Part shown: in pieces, positions 21,942 to 39,709 of the stretch
Position numbering within the stretch: the stretch's first letter is position 1
How the letters are laid out: every line of letters starts with the position of its first letter
DNA from: Defluviitaleaceae bacterium
GTDB lineage: Bacteria > Bacillota > Clostridia > Lachnospirales > WRAA01
Assembly (NCBI GenBank): GCA_009780015.1
Contig: WRAW01000002.1
Location: 12 to 64,011 of the forward strand
DNA length: 64,000 bases
Reading direction: 5' to 3'
Translations under genes and position numbers: made by a program
The notes under the pieces: model-generated
Databases searched by the model: none
Seen by the model: only the letters and a program-made list of their open reading frames with translations
What the model was told of the DNA's origin: nothing

Positions 21942-23384
21942 ATGGGATTCCCGAATGTACACGATTTCTGGGGACACAACCAGTTAGGCCCCGCGGGCTT
22001 CCCGTTTGAGGGACGCCGCGTTGCGGATACCCCGACACCGATGATATTCAACGACGTTGTTACGTGGCCGGAAGTAGATGTTCAGGGCACACACGGCGGC
22101 TACACCGTATTTGCCTTTAGAAGCGCGACGGAAACTAATGTGAACAACGCGTATGCGTATGCTCATACAGACGACACTACGTTCAATGTGCTTACCGATT
22201 TTAACCCGCCGCTACCGACGGAAACATTCTTCTTCCGTGTTCAGGCCATGGGTACCGATTTAGCCCCAAATGCTGATTTCCTGATCTGGAACGCTCATCT
22301 TCCTTCGGAGCTCAGCGAAAGAGCGATATCTCCTCCGTACGAAGACCCTGACCCTGACCCTGCTCCGCCTGCCGTCCATCCGGCCCCTCCGTCCGGCGGA
22401 AGACCAAGTCCTCCGGTGACGGCGCCTCCGCGTGACCCCGCCGCAGTTGCTCCAACGCCTCCGAGCCAGCAGGCGAATATGCCGGTCGGCAGCGCGGTTA
22501 TGGGTACGGATCAGACGGCCGAGATCATATTCCATGCACTAACAGCGGGCGATCCTGTAGTGATCTCGTTGCCGAACAACACGCGCTACGCGGACTTCCA
22601 GTCCAGCGACATCGCGGCTCTTGCTTACCGCGGGGATGACCTCTCGGTTGAACGCGCTGGTGTACGCATTATCGTACCCGGGGACGTTCTCGCAGAGATT
22701 TCTCCGGCAAACCTCCAGACATTCCGCATTGAGATCGGTTCCGTATCCGACGCTCTTGTAGATGCCGTCGGAGATGTAGATCAGGGCGACCTCCTGAGCG
22801 TATTCTATGTTAACATTATTGTAAACGGAAGCGGTGTCGGCGATCTGAACGCGCCCGTCGTGATATCCCTTGATGCCGCGCAATTCGGTGTCACAGCGGC
22901 TACTTACGGCGTAACAGGCGCACGTGTCAACGCGGGCGGAAGCTTCAGCTTGCTGGGTGGCAGCCTGAGCCAAGGCCGCTTCGAGTTCATCACCGACAGC
23001 CTGAGCTCTTACGCCCTGCTTAGCGGAGTCACGTTCACAAGCCTCGCGTTCACCGTCGATACCGCGAGCTTTGCGCTCAACGGCGCGAGCCAGGGTCTTG
23101 ACGTAGCTCCGACCATCATCAACGGCCGCACGATGGTTCCGGTACGCGCAATTGCGGAAGGACTAGGCGCCAACGTCGTCTGGAACGAAGCCGCAAGCGC
23201 CATTTCGATAGATCTCGGCGAAACTTCAGTCGAGCTCGCTATCGGCGTCCTTGCCCCAGGTATGGATGTCCCTGCGACTATCGTCGACGGCAGAGCTCTC
23301 GTTCCGCTTAGATTTATCTCAGAACAACTCGGCGCCAGTGTCGTCTGGAACTCCAGAGACCAAGGCATCGGTATTTACAGATAA
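21942..23384 (+). CDS. Surface protein, segment 3, in the same frame: rest of rhodanese domain 2, FN3-like module, Pro-rich linker and a C-terminal copper-amine-oxidase-N (stalk) wall-associated domain
   Basis: There is no Shine-Dalgarno sequence and no signal peptide. Codons 21897-21941 are open and read AGGGRTVPATVAVAT. The C-terminus has NGRTMVPVRAIAEGLGANVVWNE and DGRALVPLRFISEQLGASVVWNS. Confidence 0.7.
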   Translation: MGFPNVHDFWGHNQLGPAGFPFEGRRVADTPTPMIFNDVVTWPEVDVQGTHGGYTVFAFRSATETNVNNAYAYAHTDDTTFNVLTDFNPPLPTETFFFRVQAMGTDLAPNADFLIWNAHLPSELSERAISPPYEDPDPDPAPPAVHPAPPSGGRPSPPVTAPPRDPAAVAPTPPSQQANMPVGSAVMGTDQTAEIIFHALTAGDPVVISLPNNTRYADFQSSDIAALAYRGDDLSVERAGVRIIVPGDVLAEISPANLQTFRIEIGSVSDALVDAVGDVDQGDLLSVFYVNIIVNGSGVGDLNAPVVISLDAAQFGVTAATYGVTGARVNAGGSFSLLGGSLSQGRFEFITDSLSSYALLSGVTFTSLAFTVDTASFALNGASQGLDVAPTIINGRTMVPVRAIAEGLGANVVWNEAASAISIDLGETSVELAIGVLAPGMDVPATIVDGRALVPLRFISEQLGASVVWNSRDQGIGIYR

Positions 23385-23400
23385 TATTCAGTAACAAAAG

Positions 23401-23436
23401 TGACCACCGGCCAAGCGTCGGTGGTCATTATATTTT
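23401..23436 (+). terminator. Intrinsic terminator after the surface-protein locus
   Basis: The hairpin is tgaccaccg-gccaagcgt-cggtggtca, followed by ttatatttt. Confidence 0.6.
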
Positions 23437-23549
23437 CTATGTTTATTTTTGAAAAATTGAGGAATTTTTGAGATTTGTATTGTAAATTCTTCTTGATATC
23501 AAAAGTTACATTGGTGATTAAATATTAGGGAAATCAAGGGGGACGATTT

Positions 23550-23960
23550 ATGAGGAAGGAAGAGTTTAGCCTCATTGTAATTGGTGCGTTGATAGTATCG
23601 GCGATTTCTTTGTCCGCATGGATTGCATATAGTGAGTTAACAAGACCTACCTCGCCTGTTATTGCTATCGAAAACAACACAATAGCGTGGGATGTAACAG
23701 GAATAGGTGATATCACCGCTGGACGATTTATTCGTTCATATGAAGTGCGTGTGGTCATCGGCAATGAAACATTTACTGCAATTGTTGACGGCCCAACGGA
23801 ATTAGGTGTAACGATTGCTAAAGGTTTAACAACTTTAGATTTGGACAGTGTTCAACAGGCTATAGATAATGCCGAAGTCACGGTTCGTACGGTACGAAAT
23901 CTTAATTCCGGCACAGGCTTTAGCAGGTGGTCAAACACAGTTATCTGGGTACGCGAGTAA
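23550..23960 (+). CDS. Small membrane-anchored protein with an FN3-like ectodomain (hypothetical)
   Basis: It has an N-terminal transmembrane helix (FSLIVIGALIVSAISLSAWIAY). A GGGGGA ribosome-binding site precedes the ATG. The theme IAWDVTG...YEVRVV...RWSNTV echoes the FN3-like modules upstream. Confidence 0.5.
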   Translation: MRKEEFSLIVIGALIVSAISLSAWIAYSELTRPTSPVIAIENNTIAWDVTGIGDITAGRFIRSYEVRVVIGNETFTAIVDGPTELGVTIAKGLTTLDLDSVQQAIDNAEVTVRTVRNLNSGTGFSRWSNTVIWVRE

Positions 23961-24420
23961 AAAAATTGGTAATGTCGAAAGAAGAAATCAGTTGCTATTT
24001 TGTCGTCGAAAACAGTAACTGAACTGTATACTTTGATAAGTAATAGAAATTAATATTATTACTTTGAGCTGCCAATGTTTTTATCGAGTATATTGGATTT
24101 TTAGAGACGCTTGGGTATAATGTAATATATCCAACGCTAATTGTATCCCTTCTCTAAGAGCTTGATTTTCTGTATCGTTGACTACAAAATCCCCTTCAAA
24201 CAGGCCGTAAGAAATAACCGTAGCTGTCCGCAGTTCTTGGCCGACTTCAACTATAGCGGTAGCTACTGCTCCGGTATTTCTACCATGGATTATCCACACC
24301 CGGTCTTAACCATCTTCCCTAAACAGGACGGCAGGTGGTATGGCAAAGCTATATTTGATTTGTCTTTTGGAACCTGTACATATGTGGTATAATCGTTACA
24401 GATGGAGGGCGAATTAAACC

Positions 24421-25236
24421 ATGTTTAGAATAGGTGAGTTTTCAAAACTGACGCAGGTGTCAATCCGTATGTTGCGATACTATGATGAAACAGGATTGTT
24501 GAAGCCTGCGGAAATTGACAAGTTTACAAATTACAGACTATATTCTGCGGAGCAGATTCCTGTATTAAACAAGGTTGTTTTCTTGCGTGATTTAGGATTT
24601 AATGTTTCGGAAATATCGGCTGTGCTAACCGAGTGGAGCAACGAATCTATTACCAAGCTACTCGATAGCAAGCATTTGGAAATTCAAGATACGATTAAAG
24701 TCGAGCAAGATAAGCTGTTAAAAATCGAGTTAGCCAAAAGAGATATTCAGCAAGAAAAGATAAAAACACACTACAACGTATCAATTAAATCTGTTCCAAG
24801 CTATCAAGTGTTTTCGTTAAGGCGGGTTGTTCCGAATTACTATGCCGAAGGATTGTTATGGAAAGAAATATCTGGATTTGTAGACGCAAAGAATATTACT
24901 ATTTCAGGCAAAACCTTCTCCATCTTCCATGACCCGGATTATAGAGAAGCAGATGTAGACATTGAAGTATGCGTTCCTGTAGCAAAAATGAGAAAAAATT
25001 CAGACGGCTTTACTTACAGACATACAGAACCTGTACCAATCATGGCGCGTACTATGGTATATGGACATTTTGAAAACATTGCAAGTGCATATATTGGGTT
25101 TGCAAGTTGGCTGCAAGAATATAGTCAATACAGTATGGGCGAGCATAGTAGACAAATTGTCCATCGTGGACCGTGGAATGAAGAAAATCCCGATAAATGG
25201 TTGACAGAAATGCAAATCCCATTAGAGAGAATATAG
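24421..25236 (+). CDS. MerR-family transcriptional regulator with a GyrI-like effector-binding domain (BmrR/TipA-like architecture)
   Basis: The N-terminal helix-turn-helix is MFRIGEFSKLTQVSIRMLRYYDETGLLKP. A coiled-coil linker follows, then a C-terminal GyrI-like region. Confidence 0.85.
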   Translation: MFRIGEFSKLTQVSIRMLRYYDETGLLKPAEIDKFTNYRLYSAEQIPVLNKVVFLRDLGFNVSEISAVLTEWSNESITKLLDSKHLEIQDTIKVEQDKLLKIELAKRDIQQEKIKTHYNVSIKSVPSYQVFSLRRVVPNYYAEGLLWKEISGFVDAKNITISGKTFSIFHDPDYREADVDIEVCVPVAKMRKNSDGFTYRHTEPVPIMARTMVYGHFENIASAYIGFASWLQEYSQYSMGEHSRQIVHRGPWNEENPDKWLTEMQIPLERI

Positions 25237-26598: not shown

Positions 26599-27102
26599 TC
26601 ACTCTGCCGGGGGAGTTACAAGCTCCTTTATCGCCCGAATCATGTTATATAGCAGGAATACGGAAGAAGAGGCGGCAAAAGCAGGCAAAGCAGCAAATGC
26701 AAAGCCGGTTGGCCAGCGCAAAATGGTAAACAAGACGCCCACTCTTTGGTTGGCTACGATAATTCCCTCATAGAACAGGATCACACATATACCCAAGATG
26801 ACAGCGCGCATTAAAATGAATAACCCCTTCTTTATGTGCCACGAAAAATGATCGACAAAGAACGTAACCACTATGTGGTCGCCGCGATAGATTGCCGTTG
26901 CCATGCCCAGACATATGCTCCAGGATATCATTAGCATCGAGAAGTCAAGCGCCCACAGAACCGAAAAGCCGAGGAATGTGCGGGTGAAAATGTTAGCTAA
27001 GTTAACCAAGAAGATCGAGAAGAAGCAGATTGCGGAAATTGTCCACAAAATTTCGGAATATATGTCCATTATCTTTTTAATCATGACATCACACTCCTCC
27101 AA
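26599..27102 (-). CDS. TRAP transporter small permease (DctQ-like)
   Basis: It has four transmembrane helices and a DctQ-type pattern (FTRTFLGFSVLWALDFSMLMISW...RGDHIVV). Confidence 0.7.
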   Translation of the reverse strand: MEECDVMIKKIMDIYSEILWTISAICFFSIFLVNLANIFTRTFLGFSVLWALDFSMLMISWSICLGMATAIYRGDHIVVTFFVDHFSWHIKKGLFILMRAVILGICVILFYEGIIVANQRVGVLFTILRWPTGFAFAALPAFAASSSVFLLYNMIRAIKELVTPPAE

Positions 27103-27793
27103 ATATCAGATTTGGCAGAAACAAGGTTACTTGAGGAATGTAGGTGACTATCATAAGTACCACTATCATAGCCCCAACAAAGGGAATCACCTGTTTTACC
27201 ATGCGGTCGATAGGTACACCGGATATCTTCTGAACCACAAACAGCAGCCCGCCGACCGGAGGGGTGCACAATCCAATCGACAGATTGACAACAACCAGGA
27301 CGCCAAAGTGGATCGGGTCGATGCCAAGGCTTACAGCAATAGGCATAAAGACCGGCATGAAAATTGTCATCAGGGGAAGCGCGTCCATTATCATACCCAC
27401 GATCAGGAAGAATATGTTTACCATAAGCAAGAACATCAAAGGAGACATTTACATGCCTAATATGAGGTGGGCCAACATTACGTCAACCCGTTCCACCGCC
27501 ATAAAAAACGTGAATGTGCCAAGTACTCCAAACAGCGCCATGATTGCGGACGCAAATAGAATCGCTTTCTTAAACGCCTGTAAGAGCTTGAGTAACGTAA
27601 GGTTGCGATATATGAAAAAACCCACGAGCATCACAAAAGAGCAGGCGAGAATCGAAATCTCCGTAATTGTTGCCAGACCTGACAATACTCCGACTATTAT
27701 GATCATCGGTGCCAATAAGCCCGGTAGGGCATCCAGAAACACTTTGTACAGCGGCTTCTGCCTGTACTTTGAAGGATTAACCGAAAGATCCAT
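27089..27793 (-). pseudogene. TRAP transporter large permease (DctM) remnant, N-terminally truncated and carrying an in-frame TAA
   Basis: ORFs 27449..27793 and 27089..27448 are in the same frame, separated only by a TAA at 27449-27451. Together they cover about the C-terminal 230 aa of a roughly 425-aa DctM (GIDPIHFGVLVVVNLSIGLCTPPVGGLLFV). No dctP gene is present. Confidence 0.7.
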
Positions 27794-28115
27794 AATACTA
27801 GGTTCTGGGTAAGCGGGATATTGTAACTTTCAAAAAACCTTATGAAAAGTCGAACTTTTGAAATCAGGTTGTTACCGTAACGGGTTGTGTATGCATAAAT
27901 TTCGGAGCCAAAACATCACATGAAATATCATCGTGAATTTTTAATTGATTGAAAGCAATTGTAAATAACCCACAAAAATAATATAATTAATTAGTATAAT
28001 ACGCAGAAGTTAAATCAAATTGTTGCGTTTGATTTTTTGTTGTGATAAAGTTTATATAAAGAATCAGGTATGATGCAAGCGAAAACATAGTATGAATCTG
28101 AAAGGAGTAAAACTT

Positions 28116-32452: not shown

Positions 32453-35170
32453 GTGGTGCAGCAACTTACATGGGATGCCATACAATCAAATGCGATAGCC
32501 TTTTCAAAGAAATGGCAAAAAGCCAAAAATGAAGAAGCGGAAGCGCAAGGTTTCCAGCTTGATTTTCTGCGTATCTTTGGTGTAGACGAGCCTATGGCTG
32601 TTGGAGATTTTGAGTATAGGGTTCCGCTTGCCGGCGGCAGAACTGGCTATATAGATTATGTTTGGAAAAGCAAAATTGCTATTGAGATGAAGAGCCGCGG
32701 CAAGAGTCTTGATGAAGCCTTTACGCAGCTGCAAAACTATATGCAGAATCTTCCCACTGATGAAATCCCCGACCTGTGGATGGTCTGTGATTTTGAAAAC
32801 ATAAGGCTTTGCCGCCGATCCACAAATGAGATATGGAACTTCAAAACCAAAGACCTTCGCAAGCATATCAAACGCTTTGCCGACATTGCAGGCTATGAGA
32901 CCGAGCGCGACAAAGGCGAACAGATAGAAGTCAACGTAAAGGCCGCCGAAAAAATGGCCAAGCTATATGACGCGCTAAGAGACCACGGCTATGAGGGACA
33001 AGAGCTTGAGGTTTACTTGGTGCGTTTACTATTTTGTTTGTTTGCTGACGATACAGGTATCTTCCCCAAGGATAGTCTTTACAATTATTTTGAACGATCC
33101 AAGGCGGACGGAAGCGATCTAACCCACCGCATCGCCGACCTCTTTGAAGTTCTAAATATGTCCGAAGATATTCGCGCTAAGAAGTCGCTGCTTTCTGACG
33201 AACTAAAGCAATTCCGCTACATAAACGGCAAGCTATTCGCCGACAGACTGCCCCCTGCCGACTTCAACGCCAAGATGAGGCAAACTCTTTTGGAGTGCCT
33301 TAATTTCAATTGGAACAAGATAAGCCCTGCCATCTTCGGCGCCATGTTCCAAGGTGTTATGAACAAGTCGAAGCGCAGAGAAATGGGAGCGCACTATACA
33401 AGCGAAGAAAATATCGAAAAGCTAATCAACCCCTTGTTCATGGATGAACTTTGGAAAGATTTCGACAAGGTAAAGACCGATCCTGCCGCTCTTGACCGCT
33501 TTCACGACAAAATATCTAGGCTAAAATTTCTTGACCCTGCCTGCGGCTGCGGAAATTTCCTTATAGTCACCTATGGCAAGCTGAGGGAGCTTGAGCTTGA
33601 AATTCTAAAAATGAAAGCCGGCACAAACCAGCTTATAATAGACATCACGCCAATGTTGAAAGTAAGCGTGGAGCAGTTTTATGGTATAGAACTTGAAGAA
33701 TTTGCTTGCCAAATAGCTCAGGTTGGTATGTGGCTTATTGACCACCAAATGAATTTGCGTGTGTCAGAACAGTTCGGTATGTATTTTGCCAGGCTGCCTC
33801 TATCACAGGGGGCAGTCATCGTACACGGCAACGCCCTGCGGTTGGATTGGGAGAGCATCGTCTCCAAGCACGAACTTTCGTATATACTAGGCAATCCGCC
33901 GTTTGTTGGATTGTCACTGCGCAATACTCAGCAACAAGAGGATATGGATATTGTTTTCAAATATAACGAAAGAGCGGGGCGATTGGATTATGTTGCCGCA
34001 TGGTATAAAAAGGCGTCCAACTTTGTGCGAAATACCTTCATTGAAGTTGCTTTCGTATCCACCAATAGCATTACCCAAGGCGAACAAGTCCCCATTTTGT
34101 GGAGTGGCATGAAAGAGAGTGAATCAGAAATAAACTTCGCCCATCGCACATTTATCTGGAGCAACGAAGCCAAGGGAAAAGCAGCCGTCCATTGTGTCAT
34201 CATAGGATTCTCTCAACGCAACCACAAAGTAAAGCGATTGTTTGAGTACGATTATGAAGGCGAATTAGTAGTACATGAAGTTAAGCACATCAATGGCTAT
34301 CTAGTTGCAGCCGAAAATGTGTTTGTTGAGTTGCGCGGAAAAGCAAGAGTGGGGTTTCCAAAACTAGTTCAAGGAAGCAAACCTTGGGACGGAGGATTTC
34401 TAATACTGTCAGAAGAGGAAAGACAAGAGTTGCTGCGAAAATATCCTGAAACATCGGCGTTTATTAAGCAATATGTAGGTTCTCAGGAATTTATAAATAG
34501 CACGAAGAGATATTGCCTGTGGCTTCAAAACGTACCTCCTACTGCATATCGAAATATTCCTGACATTATGGAACGTTTGGACGGCGTGAGAAAGATTAGG
34601 CGAAAGACAAAGACTGTAGCAGTACAAAAACAAGCGGATATACCAATGCTTTTTTCGCAAATTCGTCAACCTACAACAAACTATTTGCTTGTTCCCGAAA
34701 CTTCATCTGAAAATAGGCGCTATATCCCGATAGGTTTTATGCCGCCAGATATTATAGCGAGCAATGCAACTCTTGTCGCTGAAAACGCTACGCTTTATCA
34801 CTTTGGGATTCTAACATCAAATGTACATATGGCATGGACTCGGACTGTGTGCGGAAGGCTGAAAAGCGATTACCGTTATTCGCCATCGATCTACAACAAC
34901 TTTCCTTGGCCAGAGGCAAACAACAAACATCAGGCAGAAATCGAGAAGTTGGCGCAATCCATATTGGGCGCAAGGGCAAGCTACCCTGAAAGCTCCCTAG
35001 CCGATCTCTATGACCCTCTAACCATGCCGCCAGACCTGCTAAAAGCCCACCAAAACCTCGACCGTGCCGTGATGAAGCTGTACGGCTTCCCCGTCAAGAA
35101 TTTCACCGAGGCGGATTGTGTGGGGGCGTTGATGGGGCTGTATCGGGAATTGATAGACAGAGGGGAATAG
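32453..35170 (+). CDS. MmeI-family type IIL (fused endonuclease, N6-adenine methyltransferase and specificity domain) restriction-modification enzyme
   Basis: The N-terminus has a PD-(D/E)xK-like D-x9-E-x-K motif (IDYVWKSKIAIEMK). A FLDPACGCGNF SAM motif and an NPPF catalytic motif (LGNPPFVG) are present. The length of 905 aa and the domain order match MmeI-like enzymes. Confidence 0.8.
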   Translation: MVQQLTWDAIQSNAIAFSKKWQKAKNEEAEAQGFQLDFLRIFGVDEPMAVGDFEYRVPLAGGRTGYIDYVWKSKIAIEMKSRGKSLDEAFTQLQNYMQNLPTDEIPDLWMVCDFENIRLCRRSTNEIWNFKTKDLRKHIKRFADIAGYETERDKGEQIEVNVKAAEKMAKLYDALRDHGYEGQELEVYLVRLLFCLFADDTGIFPKDSLYNYFERSKADGSDLTHRIADLFEVLNMSEDIRAKKSLLSDELKQFRYINGKLFADRLPPADFNAKMRQTLLECLNFNWNKISPAIFGAMFQGVMNKSKRREMGAHYTSEENIEKLINPLFMDELWKDFDKVKTDPAALDRFHDKISRLKFLDPACGCGNFLIVTYGKLRELELEILKMKAGTNQLIIDITPMLKVSVEQFYGIELEEFACQIAQVGMWLIDHQMNLRVSEQFGMYFARLPLSQGAVIVHGNALRLDWESIVSKHELSYILGNPPFVGLSLRNTQQQEDMDIVFKYNERAGRLDYVAAWYKKASNFVRNTFIEVAFVSTNSITQGEQVPILWSGMKESESEINFAHRTFIWSNEAKGKAAVHCVIIGFSQRNHKVKRLFEYDYEGELVVHEVKHINGYLVAAENVFVELRGKARVGFPKLVQGSKPWDGGFLILSEEERQELLRKYPETSAFIKQYVGSQEFINSTKRYCLWLQNVPPTAYRNIPDIMERLDGVRKIRRKTKTVAVQKQADIPMLFSQIRQPTTNYLLVPETSSENRRYIPIGFMPPDIIASNATLVAENATLYHFGILTSNVHMAWTRTVCGRLKSDYRYSPSIYNNFPWPEANNKHQAEIEKLAQSILGARASYPESSLADLYDPLTMPPDLLKAHQNLDRAVMKLYGFPVKNFTEADCVGALMGLYRELIDRGE

Positions 35171-35241
35171 CGAAAAATTAAATAATATTATTGACAAACT
35201 ATATTTTCATGTGTGAATATATTACGAAGAGGTGTATTGGG

Positions 35242-36120
35242 ATGGATATAAGTGAAAGACAACCAACATATAAGCGACAACGTTTTTTGCTAACGTTTCT
35301 ACGGCAGCTTAACGGGGATATAACGGCCACAAATTTACAGAAATTAGTTTTTATGTACACTATGGCAGAAGATCCAATACACTATGATTTTGTTCCATAT
35401 AAGTTCGGTGCATACTCATTTCAACTTGAAGAGGATTTAAGTATACTCCAGCGCGACGGTTACGTGTCAATTAGCGTTGACTCAAAGCGTAGGCAGATTA
35501 AAGCACTTGGCAAATACGATCAAAAGCCCTCGTTTGTGATTTGTCCAGAGCGCGGTGATGATCTAATCCGCAAAACATATCAAAAATATCCATACTTCAC
35601 TATAAACAGTGAAATACTTGGGCGCATATTCAATAAAGCTGAATCGGAACAATATTTGATCGAAAGACAAAGTTACATCAACGAAAATCAAGTTTTATTT
35701 ACAATTGGGTATGAAGGCAAGAGCATTGAGAGTTTTGTAAATACACTAATACGCAATGGGATACGTAAGTTGTGTGATGTTCGTAAAAACCCGCTAAGTC
35801 GAAAGTTTGGATTTTCCAAAGGAAAGCTGCAACATATAATGGAAACAGTCAACATTGAGTATGAGCATTTACCGGAATTAGGCATTAAATCGGATAAACG
35901 TACTTTCCTGGAAATGCCAGAAGACTATGAAGCTTTGTTTGAAGAATATGCTAAAATGATGCCTAAACTTGAATCAGAGCTTGAGAAGCTGTATGCATTT
36001 TTTAATTTTAATAAGCGTATAGCTTTAATGTGTTATGAATTAGAACCAAAAATGTGCCATCGACATGTCATCAAAGATTGGTTAGTTAGTAAATTTTTGA
36101 TAAAGGGCAAGGACTTATGA
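35242..36120 (+). CDS. Fusion protein: N-terminal winged-helix/Panacea(DUF4065)-like region plus a C-terminal DUF488 domain
   Basis: The C-terminus carries DUF488 hallmarks (FTIGYEGKSIESFV..L...GI..L.DVR..P.SRK.GFSK..L...........Y.HLPELG...MCYE..P..CHRH.I). The N-terminal segment LQKLVFMY....YDFVPYKFGAYS resembles DUF4065. Its stop overlaps the start of the next gene (ATGA). Confidence 0.65.
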   Translation: MDISERQPTYKRQRFLLTFLRQLNGDITATNLQKLVFMYTMAEDPIHYDFVPYKFGAYSFQLEEDLSILQRDGYVSISVDSKRRQIKALGKYDQKPSFVICPERGDDLIRKTYQKYPYFTINSEILGRIFNKAESEQYLIERQSYINENQVLFTIGYEGKSIESFVNTLIRNGIRKLCDVRKNPLSRKFGFSKGKLQHIMETVNIEYEHLPELGIKSDKRTFLEMPEDYEALFEEYAKMMPKLESELEKLYAFFNFNKRIALMCYELEPKMCHRHVIKDWLVSKFLIKGKDL

Positions 36121-36953
36121 TAAGAGAAAAGAAACGAATTTATATTGTTGTTAAGACATACCCAACAATCTCGAAGGAGTACGCCGAACTTGTCTGCACG
36201 GCAGGTATACTTGAAGATGGTTCATGGATTCGTCTTTATCCTGTGCCTTTTAGAAAGCTAGATATGGATGAGAAATATCCAAAATATACATGGGTTGAAG
36301 TCGAAGTAGTTCGCAACACAAATGATTTTCGCCCAGAAACATATAGGCCAGATTTATCTACGATATTAGTTGGGGCAAGACCGTCCAAAGCTGATTGGAA
36401 TGAGCGGCGCAGAGTCATTTTCAACAACAAGACGATTTATACCAATCTCAAAGAGTTAATAGATAAAGCAAAGGAAGATGGAACTTCACTTGCTGTATTT
36501 AAACCATCAAAAATACTTGATTTTACTATTCAGAAAGTTGAACGCAACTGGGATTCGAACAAATTAGCTCTATTGAAAAGCTTGAGCCAACAAATGAATT
36601 TATTTCAAACACCCGAAGAGATTGATGAGGAATTTAAAGTCGTTAATAAGGTTCCGTACAAGTTCTCATATAAATTTGAGGATGGTTCTGGAAAGCAGTC
36701 AACTATGATGATTGAGGATTGGGAGATAGGTATGTTATATTTTAACTGTCTCTCTCGTGCAAATGGCGATGAAAAAATAGCAACTGCTAAAGTGAAGCAG
36801 ATGTATTTTGATGAATTTGCCAAAAAAGACTTACATTTCTTTTTAGGTACAACGAAGCAGTTTCATAACGTTGCACCAAACCCATTTATAATTATCGGCG
36901 TATTCTACCCACCGATGCCGATGAAAAATCAACAAATAAGCCTATTTGATTAA
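36117..36953 (+). CDS. Hypothetical protein (278 aa), translationally coupled to the DUF488 fusion gene
   Basis: It is a long open frame in an AT-rich region with a 4-nt ATGA overlap with the upstream gene. I recognise no domain in it. Confidence 0.6.
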   Translation: MIREKKRIYIVVKTYPTISKEYAELVCTAGILEDGSWIRLYPVPFRKLDMDEKYPKYTWVEVEVVRNTNDFRPETYRPDLSTILVGARPSKADWNERRRVIFNNKTIYTNLKELIDKAKEDGTSLAVFKPSKILDFTIQKVERNWDSNKLALLKSLSQQMNLFQTPEEIDEEFKVVNKVPYKFSYKFEDGSGKQSTMMIEDWEIGMLYFNCLSRANGDEKIATAKVKQMYFDEFAKKDLHFFLGTTKQFHNVAPNPFIIIGVFYPPMPMKNQQISLFD

Positions 36954-37049
36954 TTATAGTATGCTGACTACCCAATCAAGATTAAACACAAATGCGAACA
37001 CCTCTCCGACGAAAAAACATCGGCTAGGGTTCGCATTAGTTTCTAATTC

Positions 37050-37137
37050 CGGAAGCGGTGGGATTCGAACCCACGGTACCCGCAAAGGTACACCTGATTT
37101 CGAGTCAGGCCCGTTATAGCCACTTCGATACGCTTCC
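37050..37137 (-). tRNA. tRNA-Ser (anticodon CGA)
   Basis: The reverse complement folds as a cloverleaf: acceptor GGAAGCG/CGCTTCC, anticodon loop CU-CGA-AA, long variable arm and T-arm GGTTCGAATCC. CCA is not encoded. Confidence 0.9.
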
Positions 37138-37285
37138 ATATGTGTCACTTATAATGCGCCAAACTGCTTTAACATGCTTGATTAATACAGGCACTTAGAC
37201 ATGATACATTAACTATCGAGAAAAGTCAATATATTTGTTATCGGGAGGGCGTTGCATTAATTATCCTCTTTTTATTACCCATAAC

Positions 37286-38640: not shown

Positions 38641-38680
38641 AGGGACGGCTCTTGTTATAAAGAGAGCCGTCCCTTATATT
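38641..38680 (+). terminator. Intrinsic terminator after the PPIase gene
   Basis: The hairpin is agggacggctct-tgttataaag-agagccgtccct, followed by tatatt. Confidence 0.6.
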
Positions 38681-38712
38681 GATAAAGCAACCCGGTATGT
38701 TACAATAAATAC

Positions 38713-39050
38713 ATGGATAACGAACTCAAAACAAATACCATCTTTCTTTATTCCGAAGGGGAGTACCAAATCTGTAAAAAAGGCTAGAGAAAGGCATGTA
38801 AGGAATGTGAAGAAAATATATGCCGAACAAAGAATTGCCGGGATTAAACCAAAGAAACGAGGCCGCAAACATGGAAATCAAAGGGATATATCTTTGGAGC
38901 AAGAAAGACAAATCCCAAATATCATTGTAGACAAATGTCCCGAGCAATTAAAGCTCCCTGGATATATGTGTACAAGAGCGGGTATAAGGAATTTAATAAA
39001 GCGCATGTGTGGACTTGACATACAATTATCCAAATTTGGGGTTAGGGTGC
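38713..39050 (+). pseudogene. IS630-family transposase remnant: N-terminal HTH region only, frameshifted and truncated
   Basis: The segment ..VKKIYAEQRIAGIKPKKRGRKHG..LSLEQERQI..IIVDKCPEQLKLPGYMCTRAGIRNLIKRMCGLDIQLS matches the IS630 N-terminal pattern (GL.pk.rGr......L...q...I......P.qL.l....WT...v..lI....G...s). No DDE domain follows. The upstream ATG at 38713 is in a different frame. Confidence 0.6.
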
Positions 39051-39063
39051 AAGCGTCAAAAAA

Positions 39064-39104
39064 GCGGCGGCCATATACTTTACGGTATGGCCGCCTTTAT
39101 TTGT
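39064..39104. terminator. Bidirectional intrinsic terminator
   Basis: The 10-bp stem is ggcggccata/tatggccgcc. It is flanked by an A-run on the left and tttatttgttt on the right. It lies just downstream of the minus-strand gene 39113..39577. Confidence 0.6.
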
Positions 39105-39112
39105 TTGAAGTT

Positions 39113-39577
39113 CTAATACCTACCTTTGATTATAAAGAAAGACCCGCGAATCTCCCCCGCGATTTTTGACTTTTGCCGCGCGAATTTGAATTTCTTCTCC
39201 AGTTCGGCAGGTACTTCCATCCCCATAGAAAGTTTAAGGCCGACGGCGCTCTTGGCGTCGTTTTCCAGAGCGTACATTATATTTATCCCAAGACCGTCCT
39301 CGTAATAAACATAGGTTATTTTAGCGCTTTCTATTACAAATTGCGAAGTCTCCAAGGGTTTTGCCGCAAACTCAATATCCCGTTCTTCTTTCAGAATCCT
39401 GTTTACATATTCCATAATTTCAGGCGTCTCATCGGCCGGCTTGGTAGTAAATGCGTGTCTGTGCTTGTTCATATAGTAACGCGCTTCGTTGGCACGCAGC
39501 CCGGCAAGGGCTTTTGCCACCGGCGAAGATTCCAGTCCAACCGTGGATACTTTCTCAAAATTAACTACGTATGACAT
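39113..39577 (-). CDS. Hypothetical protein (154 aa)
   Basis: It is an open frame with a GGGAGG ribosome-binding site upstream of the ATG, and it runs divergent to addB. I recognise no domain. Confidence 0.5.
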   Translation of the reverse strand: MSYVVNFEKVSTVGLESSPVAKALAGLRANEARYYMNKHRHAFTTKPADETPEIMEYVNRILKEERDIEFAAKPLETSQFVIESAKITYVYYEDGLGINIMYALENDAKSAVGLKLSMGMEVPAELEKKFKFARQKSKIAGEIRGSFFIIKGRY

Positions 39578-39709
39578 TGCTGCCGCCTCCCGTACTTATC
39601 AATGCAGTATATCATATGTTCTTTTAAATTCTCAATAACAATTTCTAAAAGATGCCGCTGGTCTAAAATAGTGTTGAAAAATGCATATGTCTTGGAGTAT
39701 AATTGGATT

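Follow-up and report, generated by a model that had tools for sequence, protein, structure and literature searches.

A winged-helix–DUF488 protein and a predicted tandem OB-fold partner: a further copy of the phage defense candidate PDC-M19

Phage defense candidates (PDCs) are gene sets predicted by "guilt-by-embedding," in which genes located inside BREX, DISARM, or type I restriction-modification (R-M) operons were collected and then curated (Payne, Hughes, Fineran and Jackson, bioRxiv 10.1101/2024.01.29.577857). One of them, PDC-M19, is listed as cassette CAS_00089 (FAM_02799>>FAM_02993) with a count of 174 (10.1101/2024.01.29.577857). The catalogue entry is a prediction only, with neither a domain description of PDC-M19B nor a proposed mechanism. 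Here, we examined a two-gene locus at positions 35242–36953 of a 64,000-nucleotide (nt) stretch of DNA from a Defluviitaleaceae bacterium (contig WRAW01000002.1; the whole stretch is referred to as the window), which an initial annotation had put forward as a new defense or toxin–antitoxin system. The first gene, A, encodes a winged-helix domain fused to DUF488, and the second, B, a predicted tandem OB-fold protein. Set against PDC-M19, the pair has the same models, gene order, strand, and R-M-side context, with no structural difference.

DarTG and PanAT are the other described systems with which the pair is best compared. Like DarTG, it is a two-gene system with an inferred direction toward single-stranded DNA (ssDNA), and it unites an enzyme and a binding domain in a single polypeptide. 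By partial matches in both sequence and structure, the N-terminal domain of A appears closest to the toxin-binding domain at the C terminus of DarG. In contrast to DarG, however, A has no Macro match and carries DUF488 in place of the macrodomain, with the domain order reversed. B matches PDC-M19B models alone in PADLOC, with neither a DarT model nor, in Pfam, any ADP-ribosyltransferase family among its matches, and the partner is instead a predicted OB-fold protein. Because both DarT and the macrodomain are missing, the pair is not DarTG. With PanAT, the pair shares a LQKLxF...FVPYKyGxYS motif, sub-threshold SocA_Panacea matches in part of the family, and an overlapping gene arrangement. PanA pairs with many toxins, whereas the A domain has, by way of DUF488, a single partner family, and the pair is not PanAT because the SocA_Panacea matches stay below threshold and the GPV signature is lost. 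A appears to have borrowed a related winged-helix domain from the DarTG and PanAT world.

The gene pair and its catalogued family

The features on which the comparison rests are as follows.

35242–36120, plus strand: gene A, 292 amino acids (aa), winged-helix domain fused to DUF488 (open reading frame [ORF], PADLOC PDC-M19A, Pfam, and homologs over residues 1–292)
36117–36953, plus strand: gene B, 278 aa, predicted tandem OB-fold protein (ORF, PADLOC PDC-M19B, and AlphaFold2 model)
36117–36120, plus strand: ATGA shared by the A stop codon and the B start codon (read from the sequence)
35242–35691, plus strand: N-terminal part of A (approximately residues 1–150), basic winged helix and helical linker (DarG models, Foldseek, and isoelectric point [pI] of ~9.2)
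35692–36117, plus strand: DUF488 domain of A, residues 151–292 (Pfam and invariant motifs)

Both proteins align with the PADLOC profiles of PDC-M19 over nearly their full lengths. A matches PDC-M19A (PDLC04505) at 3.5e-91, with residues 10–283 on profile positions 2–283 of 294, and B matches PDC-M19B (PDLC04508) at 1.9e-114, with residues 4–274 on positions 2–266 of 269. The pair also has the gene order of the cassette, A then B on the same strand. On these profile matches, the locus belongs to PDC-M19 with near certainty. It is a further copy of a catalogued candidate family, and nothing in this copy is unusual. The claim of novelty in the initial annotation is therefore lost, as both proteins are full-length PDC-M19 members and Pfam already places A in DUF488-N3a. 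Its description of the first protein as a winged helix fused to DUF488 is borne out, and the broader proposal of a defense or toxin–antitoxin candidate survives as to kind, the pair being translationally coupled, self-contained, horizontally mobile, and beside an R-M gene.

The two ORFs exist as first described, and the ATG of B can be seen overlapping the TGA of A in GGACTTATGATAAGA (36111–36125). The same abutting arrangement is found in 12 of the 13 closest genomic loci. Alignments of A with its homologs begin at residues 1–7, which supports the ATG at 35242 as the start of A rather than the TTG at 35191. A public gene call for the same protein, P0391, gives 252 aa starting from M41 and loses the first helices of the winged helix (35242–35361 in the window); the support of the homologs for 35242 rules that start out.

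Domains of the two proteins

DUF488 is a long-standing domain of unknown function that is present also in Escherichia coli YeaO. In A, the fusion to it is confirmed by Pfam DUF488 (PF04343), which matches residues 161–281 at 6.3e-26 (91.8 bits against a cutoff of 22.2). The narrower entry DUF488-N3a (PF22751, "Active DUF488-N3 subclade") matches at 29.8 bits, against a cutoff of 27, over profile positions 51–115 of 118, and all 33 orthologs of A match both entries. Across these orthologs, which come from several phyla, the motifs GYEG, DVRxNxxSxKxGF, and CxE...CHR are invariant, the individual residues being G156, Y157, E158, G159, D179, R181, N183, S186, K188, C264, E266, C272, H273, and R274. 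GYEG, DVRxN, SxK, and CxE...CHR are also kept in nine distant DUF488 proteins that partner B homologs. As read from the alignment, A retains the putative active-site residues of the "active" DUF488 subclade. Burroughs and Aravind reportedly placed DUF488 in 2023 within a rhodanese–phosphatase clade, together with RapZ-C and DUF4326, and are said to have predicted DNA-end processing in conflict systems. The Pfam entries DUF488, DUF488-N3a, and DuOB presumably derive from that same 2023 work. A paper from the Burroughs–Aravind group supports the DUF4326 part of the clade placement.

The AlphaFold2 model of A is confident, with a pLDDT of 87 and a pTM of 0.84. In a Foldseek search, the best match of the N-terminal domain was DarG in the DarTG complex 7yk3 (E 1.7e-3, probability 1.0, TM-score 0.23–0.35), followed by winged helix-turn-helix regulators. 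At the sequence level, the PADLOC DarG model matches residues 12–88 of A at 9.7e-6, and NCBIfam antitoxin_DarG gives a partial match at 5.8e-5, with 22.5 bits against a cutoff of 250. The domain had initially been likened to the Panacea (DUF4065) antitoxin domain, and the likeness holds as a distant one. SocA_Panacea (PF13274, DUF4065) reaches sub-threshold matches in 12 of the 33 orthologs, with a best E-value of 0.0035, so the impression was not baseless; the window protein itself gives nothing at E ≤ 0.1. Although the LQKLxF...FVPYKyGxYS motif of A resembles the Panacea core, the GPV signature is not kept. Its position reads G56-A-Y-S59 in A and G-(C/S)-(Y/F)-S in the family consensus. The GPV signature is critical for neutralization (PMC8832971).

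The charge of the domain separates it from its closest relative. The N-terminal domain of A is basic in all orthologs (pI ~9.2), whereas the C-terminal domain of DarG is described, in the title of one paper, as an ssDNA mimic. Its basic character makes the A domain a better candidate for a winged helix that binds DNA than for a mimic of ssDNA. By analogy to DarG, we also considered that the domain might fill the OB groove of B as such a mimic; the pI in all orthologs does not support this. The winged helix is furthermore the least conserved part of the pair. Relative to the distant, Bacteroidota-type orthologs, identity falls from 54% in B to 42% in DUF488 and 29% in the winged helix. Both proteins are mildly basic.

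B had been left without a family by the initial annotation. It indeed has no Pfam family, yet it matches PDC-M19B, and its confident AlphaFold2 model (pLDDT 86, pTM 0.84) points to tandem OB folds. A five-strand, barrel-like unit (residues 4–85) is followed by a beta-rich unit with helical inserts, and the insertions in the second half of the model are long. The Foldseek comparison that had been suggested for both models pointed A to DarG and winged helix-turn-helix proteins, as above, and B to tandem-OB proteins. In the Protein Data Bank (PDB), the matches of B, with E-values of 3e-5 to 1e-3 and probabilities of 0.98–1.0, were DNA binders of the tandem-OB kind, among them an RPA filament (8oej), the HIN-200 domains of p205, AIM2, and IFI16 (8idx, 4jbm, 2oq0, 3b6y), Teb1, and Oxytricha TEBP. 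Against viral models, the best match was baculovirus LEF-3, which binds ssDNA (1e-5), followed by phage single-stranded DNA-binding proteins. OB-type binders are thus the best structural matches of B, at 1e-5 to 1e-3 and probabilities of 0.95–1.0 overall. On the strength of the model, we predict for B two OB folds in tandem, structurally of the type seen in RPA, HIN-200, and LEF-3, a likeness that would lie at the level of the OB domain and does not imply homology to any single OB family. In animals, HIN-200 proteins sense DNA as part of innate immunity.

Pfam does hold a "Dual OB-containing domain," DuOB (PF22557, gathering threshold 27 bits), which gives no match in the window B. Two distant homologs of B, from a phage and from Sulfolobus, score 18.6–18.7 bits (E ~2e-3), below the threshold, and just one of 68 B-family members reaches an E-value of 0.053. 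The family itself is very large: clustering at 90% identity gives over 7,600 groups, 50% identity gives 2,241 representatives, and its members are all stand-alone proteins of approximately 270–290 aa. P16, G30, R39, D70, R72, D201, and W202 are invariant, and K13, Y15, C27, T28, E74, and E203 nearly so. The conserved aromatic and basic residues fall in the first OB fold.

Linkage, mobility, and genomic context

Strong evidence for the pair as a unit comes from its distribution. We surveyed 80 loci from species-representative genomes, in phyla that include Bacillota, Bacteroidota, Pseudomonadota, Chloroflexota, Ignavibacteriota, and Bdellovibrionota. In 79 of them, B is immediately preceded by an A homolog in the same orientation, and the one exception is truncated by a contig end. 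In this survey, no gene family other than A is conserved beside B. We then turned to more distant B homologs (26–37% identity) in 49 phage, plasmid, and IMG/VR loci, where DUF488 was sought with local hidden Markov models (HMMs); the scan of viral contigs was made with a closer B alignment. In 47 of these loci, a DUF488 gene sits within 270 nt of the B gene, being upstream in 39, convergent in 5, and downstream in 3. The co-occurrence across genomes that had been proposed as a check is therefore found in both sets.

The arrangement varies around this near-obligate association. Rhizobium pRL8 and plasmids of Arthrobacter and Pseudochrobactrum carry B followed by a convergent DUF488 gene, and in one Streptomyces plasmid the convergent DUF488 protein bears an Xre-type helix-turn-helix (Xre-HTH). 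DUF488 is upstream of B in another Streptomyces plasmid and in a Sulfitobacter plasmid, and plasmids of Fischerella and Calothrix have a 140-aa DUF488 gene downstream. On the Saccharolobus shibatae plasmid pBEU9E1 (locus L091, 1939–4355), a gene annotated as ParB/RepB/Spo0J encodes a fusion of ParB_N, HTH_ParB, and DUF488 and immediately precedes a B-like gene. What is joined to DUF488 differs from case to case but is always a DNA-binding module: the winged helix here, Xre-HTH in Streptomyces, and ParB_N with HTH_ParB in Saccharolobus. A fusion of a ParB NTPase, an HTH, and DUF488 puts DUF488, by analogy, where the nucleases sit in GmrSD-type enzymes. According to a preprint, an archaeal protein in which a ParB fold is fused to DUF488-HTH binds CTP.

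In the Gordonia phage Nymphadora (locus L081, NC_031061.1, 4027–6274), the B homolog gp43 stands between gp44 and the convergent gene for gp42, and the trio lies between cro and integrase. gp42 is annotated as "HipA toxin, toxin-antitoxin system?" but is actually a 150-aa DUF488 protein (Pfam 1.2e-29) on the opposite strand. The "immunity repressor" gp44, with an Xre-type HTH, is directly upstream of and coupled to gp43. It was considered as an A homolog and rejected, as it shows no similarity to A and carries the Xre-type HTH_31. The arrangement of the trio is repeated in seven Gordonia phage records.

Because the linkage survives inversion, reordering, and domain swaps, a functional partnership of DUF488 and B is strongly evidenced, and we regard A and B as one functional unit with high confidence.

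In both Sulfolobales plasmids, pBEU9E1 and pSOG2 (locus L082, 5004–6364), B is followed by an ORF of 163–168 aa in which a D...E-x-K motif (IEIDLVA...YAFEMK) was noticed by eye, similar to that of small PD-(D/E)XK nucleases. A divergent DUF488 at this position was considered and rejected (local HMM E 0.07–0.16, with no Pfam match).

In the window, the pair stands out by its composition. Its GC content is 36.2%, compared with 49.5% for the window, in line with the low GC first noted; it is the lowest-GC 1.7-kb stretch of the window, and just 0.24% of sliding windows are equally low. GC at third codon positions (GC3) is 0.33 in A and 0.34 in B, relative to 0.53–0.67 in the flanking housekeeping genes. 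B is 70–81% identical to proteins from other families and phyla, which, together with the deviating composition, argues for horizontal acquisition of the pair. Plasmids (23), Gordonia phage records (7), and IMG/VR contigs (38) carry relatives of B, and A and B each have a PHROG family (unknown function).

The neighboring features of the locus are the following.

32453–35170, plus strand: MmeI-family type IIG R-M enzyme, 905 aa (five MmeI Pfam domains, PADLOC)
35192–35224, plus strand: weak candidate promoter of the pair (perfect TTGACA at 35192–35197, imperfect −10)
36980–37048, strand not assigned: stable hairpin between the B stop codon and the tRNA-Ser 3′ end (inverted repeat and RNA fold)
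37049–37138, minus strand: tRNA-Ser(CGA) (ARAGORN; Rfam tRNA 54.4 bits)

Both neighbors are as initially described. The MmeI gene has all five of its domains and looks intact (PADLOC REase_MTase_IIG, 1126 bits), and the tRNA gene, which is read from the minus strand, has its 3′ end toward B, 95 nt from the B stop codon. An AT-rich spacer of 71 nt separates the MmeI gene from the pair and houses the candidate promoter; a consensus promoter scan missed the TTGACA site, and promoter-like sites are not enriched in the region. The hairpin has 19-nt arms and a folding energy of −24.5 kcal/mol (z = −3.7), matched by none of 200 shuffles, and is likely a bidirectional terminator for both convergent transcripts. 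Rfam found tRNA alone in 32.3–39.7 kb.

The initial annotation had regarded the MmeI gene and the tRNA as a classic defense-island setting, a view that the survey does not support. An MmeI-like neighbor occurs in 1 of 77 other loci, there is no integrase ORF between 30 and 41 kb, and no att-like repeat or repeat of the tRNA-Ser 3′ end was found. The R-M and tRNA context of this pair is incidental. The tRNA-Ser was also considered as an integration site; the tRNA adjacency and the drop in GC are present, but with neither integrase nor att-like repeat, insertion there is unproven. At 45% GC and a GC3 of 0.49, the MmeI gene is intermediate in composition between the pair and the genes of the host, which points to separate acquisition of the MmeI gene and the pair. 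The MmeI gene may have reached this position earlier than the pair or from another source.

Elsewhere in the family, defense genes recur among varied neighbors. Pfam matches among 110 flanking proteins include ResIII (6), DEAD (5), SNF2 (3), nSTAND3 (3), HsdR domains (2), HNH (2), and AbiEii-type AAA (2). Nine large neighbors were checked singly, and six are defense proteins: HmaA, HmaB, PD-Lambda-4_A, HsdR (twice), and a type IIG R-M enzyme. In a Syntrophomonas metagenome-assembled genome (locus L006, 9212–15573), the pair is immediately upstream of a complete-looking Hma system (HmaA 1671 bits, HmaB 1162 bits). Hma is the system where "embedded" defense genes were first noted. In the Gordonia phage, the pair is in the lysogeny module beside repressor, cro, and integrase.

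Other parts of the window also depart from its mean composition. Stretches of 38–39% GC are found at 23200–24550 and 26800–27900. The first extends into a gene for a MerR and GyrI-like regulator (24421–25236), which itself shares an overlap with a TrmO-like gene. In the second, the minus strand carries several short ORFs that overlap one another and look membrane-like; they may be a broken transporter gene. An AT-rich segment at 38674–39600, between a cyclophilin-type isomerase gene and an addB-like gene, contains overlapping ORFs at 38807–39169 (plus strand) and 39113–39577 (minus strand). Neither has a Pfam match, and they may be gene remnants or orphan genes.

Readings of function and their significance

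We lean, by a little, toward a conflict or defense role for the pair. That it is a biological-conflict system acting on DNA, either anti-phage or anti-mobile-element and possibly abortive or toxin–antitoxin-like, has about an even chance of being right. The specific mechanism, in which OB binding is combined with end processing by DUF488, is put forward tentatively. B would bind exposed ssDNA or DNA ends, such as intermediates of replication, injection, or transfer. A would be brought to the DNA by its N-terminal module, and the Cys/His/Arg site of DUF488 (CxE...CHR, with GYEG and DVR) would chemically process nucleic-acid termini. The winged helix may also autoregulate the operon. The outcome would be restriction of the phage or other invading DNA, or an abortive growth arrest. 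In its most general form, the proposal is that an RPA/HIN-200-like OB protein senses foreign ssDNA or ends and directs a rhodanese–phosphatase-type DUF488 to alter termini, with swappable heads (winged helix, Xre-HTH, or ParB-CTPase) tuning the targeting in bacteria, phages, and archaeal plasmids. This general form is speculative and may well prove wrong.

Several observations weigh against a defense role or against this mechanism. We know of no demonstrated activity for DUF488, and its link to phosphatase-like chemistry on nucleic-acid ends goes back to what Burroughs and Aravind are said to have proposed in 2023. No solved structure related to DUF488 was found by a PDB sequence search, which gave only chance-level matches for A, or by Foldseek. 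Sequence searches of Pfam, NCBIfam, and the PDB gave no match for B, nor did a B profile run against the PDB. Its Foldseek TM-scores are low (0.22–0.39), with 8–11% identity to the matches, so the OB assignment depends on local similarity and Foldseek probabilities. Our literature search met PDC-M19 in no full text, and it is catalogued as a candidate only. The record of other PDCs is mixed, as four of eight were protective in one study, while PDC-M63AB and PDC-S04 gave no protection in another. Many neighbors among the 110 flanking proteins are housekeeping, including tRNA synthetases, ALAD, and dehydrogenases. Finally, some carriage fits plasmid or phage establishment, or addiction, equally well, as in the plasmid loci that have ssb, radC, DUF932, ParB, or primase genes alongside and in the lysogeny module of the phage.

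Addiction is at the center of the rival that survives best. It holds that the pair is a DarTG-like toxin–antitoxin module, with B as a growth-inhibiting, ssDNA-binding toxin and A as a dual antitoxin, whose N-terminal domain binds B and autoregulates while DUF488 enzymatically reverses or prevents the damage. Stabilization of mobile elements would be its main role, and phage defense a by-product at most. DarG is documented as a dual antitoxin that acts by enzymatic reversal and by direct binding, and the toxin-binding domain of DarG is what the N-terminal domain of A matches, at ~1e-5 by HMM and by structure to 7yk3 at probability 1.0; the same domain touches SocA_Panacea in the 12 orthologs. 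HTH on the smaller partner, ATGA coupling, plasmid and prophage carriage, and the higher conservation of B (54%) than of A (29–42%) are also toxin–antitoxin patterns. However, the minimal conserved pair is DUF488 and B, without the antitoxin-like domain. In 5 of the 49 phage, plasmid, and IMG/VR loci, B and DUF488 are convergent with separate promoters, which is unusual for stoichiometric pairs. Moreover, B has no recognizable toxin fold, and the A domain has neither the Panacea GPV motif nor the ssDNA-mimic character of its DarG counterpart, being basic. On balance, we consider a DarTG-like module unlikely, though it deserves to be taken seriously.

A second rival holds that the module serves the mobile element itself, handling or repairing ssDNA or ends at entry, replication, or establishment, or acting in counter-defense, and is not host immunity. 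The plasmid neighbors speak for it: ssb, radC, and DUF932 in Sulfitobacter, toprim/DUF3991 and a large helicase on pRL8, and ParB, fused or adjacent, on pBEU9E1. B relatives on the 38 viral contigs and in Gordonia phages, and the resemblance of B to replication proteins such as RPA and LEF-3, point in the same direction. Most copies, however, are chromosomal and in varied contexts, where R-M, Hma, or PD-Lambda-4 genes are frequent neighbors. The family came to light through members located within operons of BREX, DISARM, or type I R-M systems, and the phage copy is in a lysogeny rather than a replication module. We regard this reading as quite improbable.

A three-gene system in which the pair is accessory to the MmeI-type enzyme is effectively refuted by the neighborhood survey and is now very hard to sustain. 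The pair does begin 71 nt downstream of the MmeI gene on the same strand, and two other loci (L014 and L027) likewise have type IIG genes close to the pair. An MmeI-like neighbor in 1 of 77 loci, A as the sole conserved neighbor of B, and the difference in GC and GC3 between the MmeI gene and the pair nevertheless count against it, as does the nature of MmeI-family enzymes, which are single-chain restriction, modification, and specificity systems. The MmeI enzyme was accordingly rejected as a third component. That the host lineage simply uses the two as housekeeping or regulatory genes, the outcome for which the initial annotation had proposed a check, is scarcely credible: some neighbors elsewhere are housekeeping genes, but the distribution is patchy and crosses phyla at 70–81% identity, the pair has the lowest GC of the window, there is no conserved synteny beyond it, and it is carried by phages and plasmids.

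The locus itself adds little, being one more copy of a catalogued candidate. The family is what matters, as it is very large and functionally blank and extends over many bacterial phyla, temperate phages, conjugative plasmids, and Sulfolobales plasmids. What is new here is the predicted tandem-OB fold, of the RPA, HIN, or LEF-3 type, for a partner that had been "hypothetical," the linkage of DUF488 to this predicted dual-OB protein across rearrangements, domain swaps, phages, plasmids, and an archaeal plasmid, and a short list of invariant residues for mutation. If validated, the pair would provide the first functional handle for DUF488 and might reveal effector chemistry directed at DNA ends or ssDNA. 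Should the proposed mechanism be true, terminus-altering effector chemistry of this kind would be one not yet demonstrated in any defense system.

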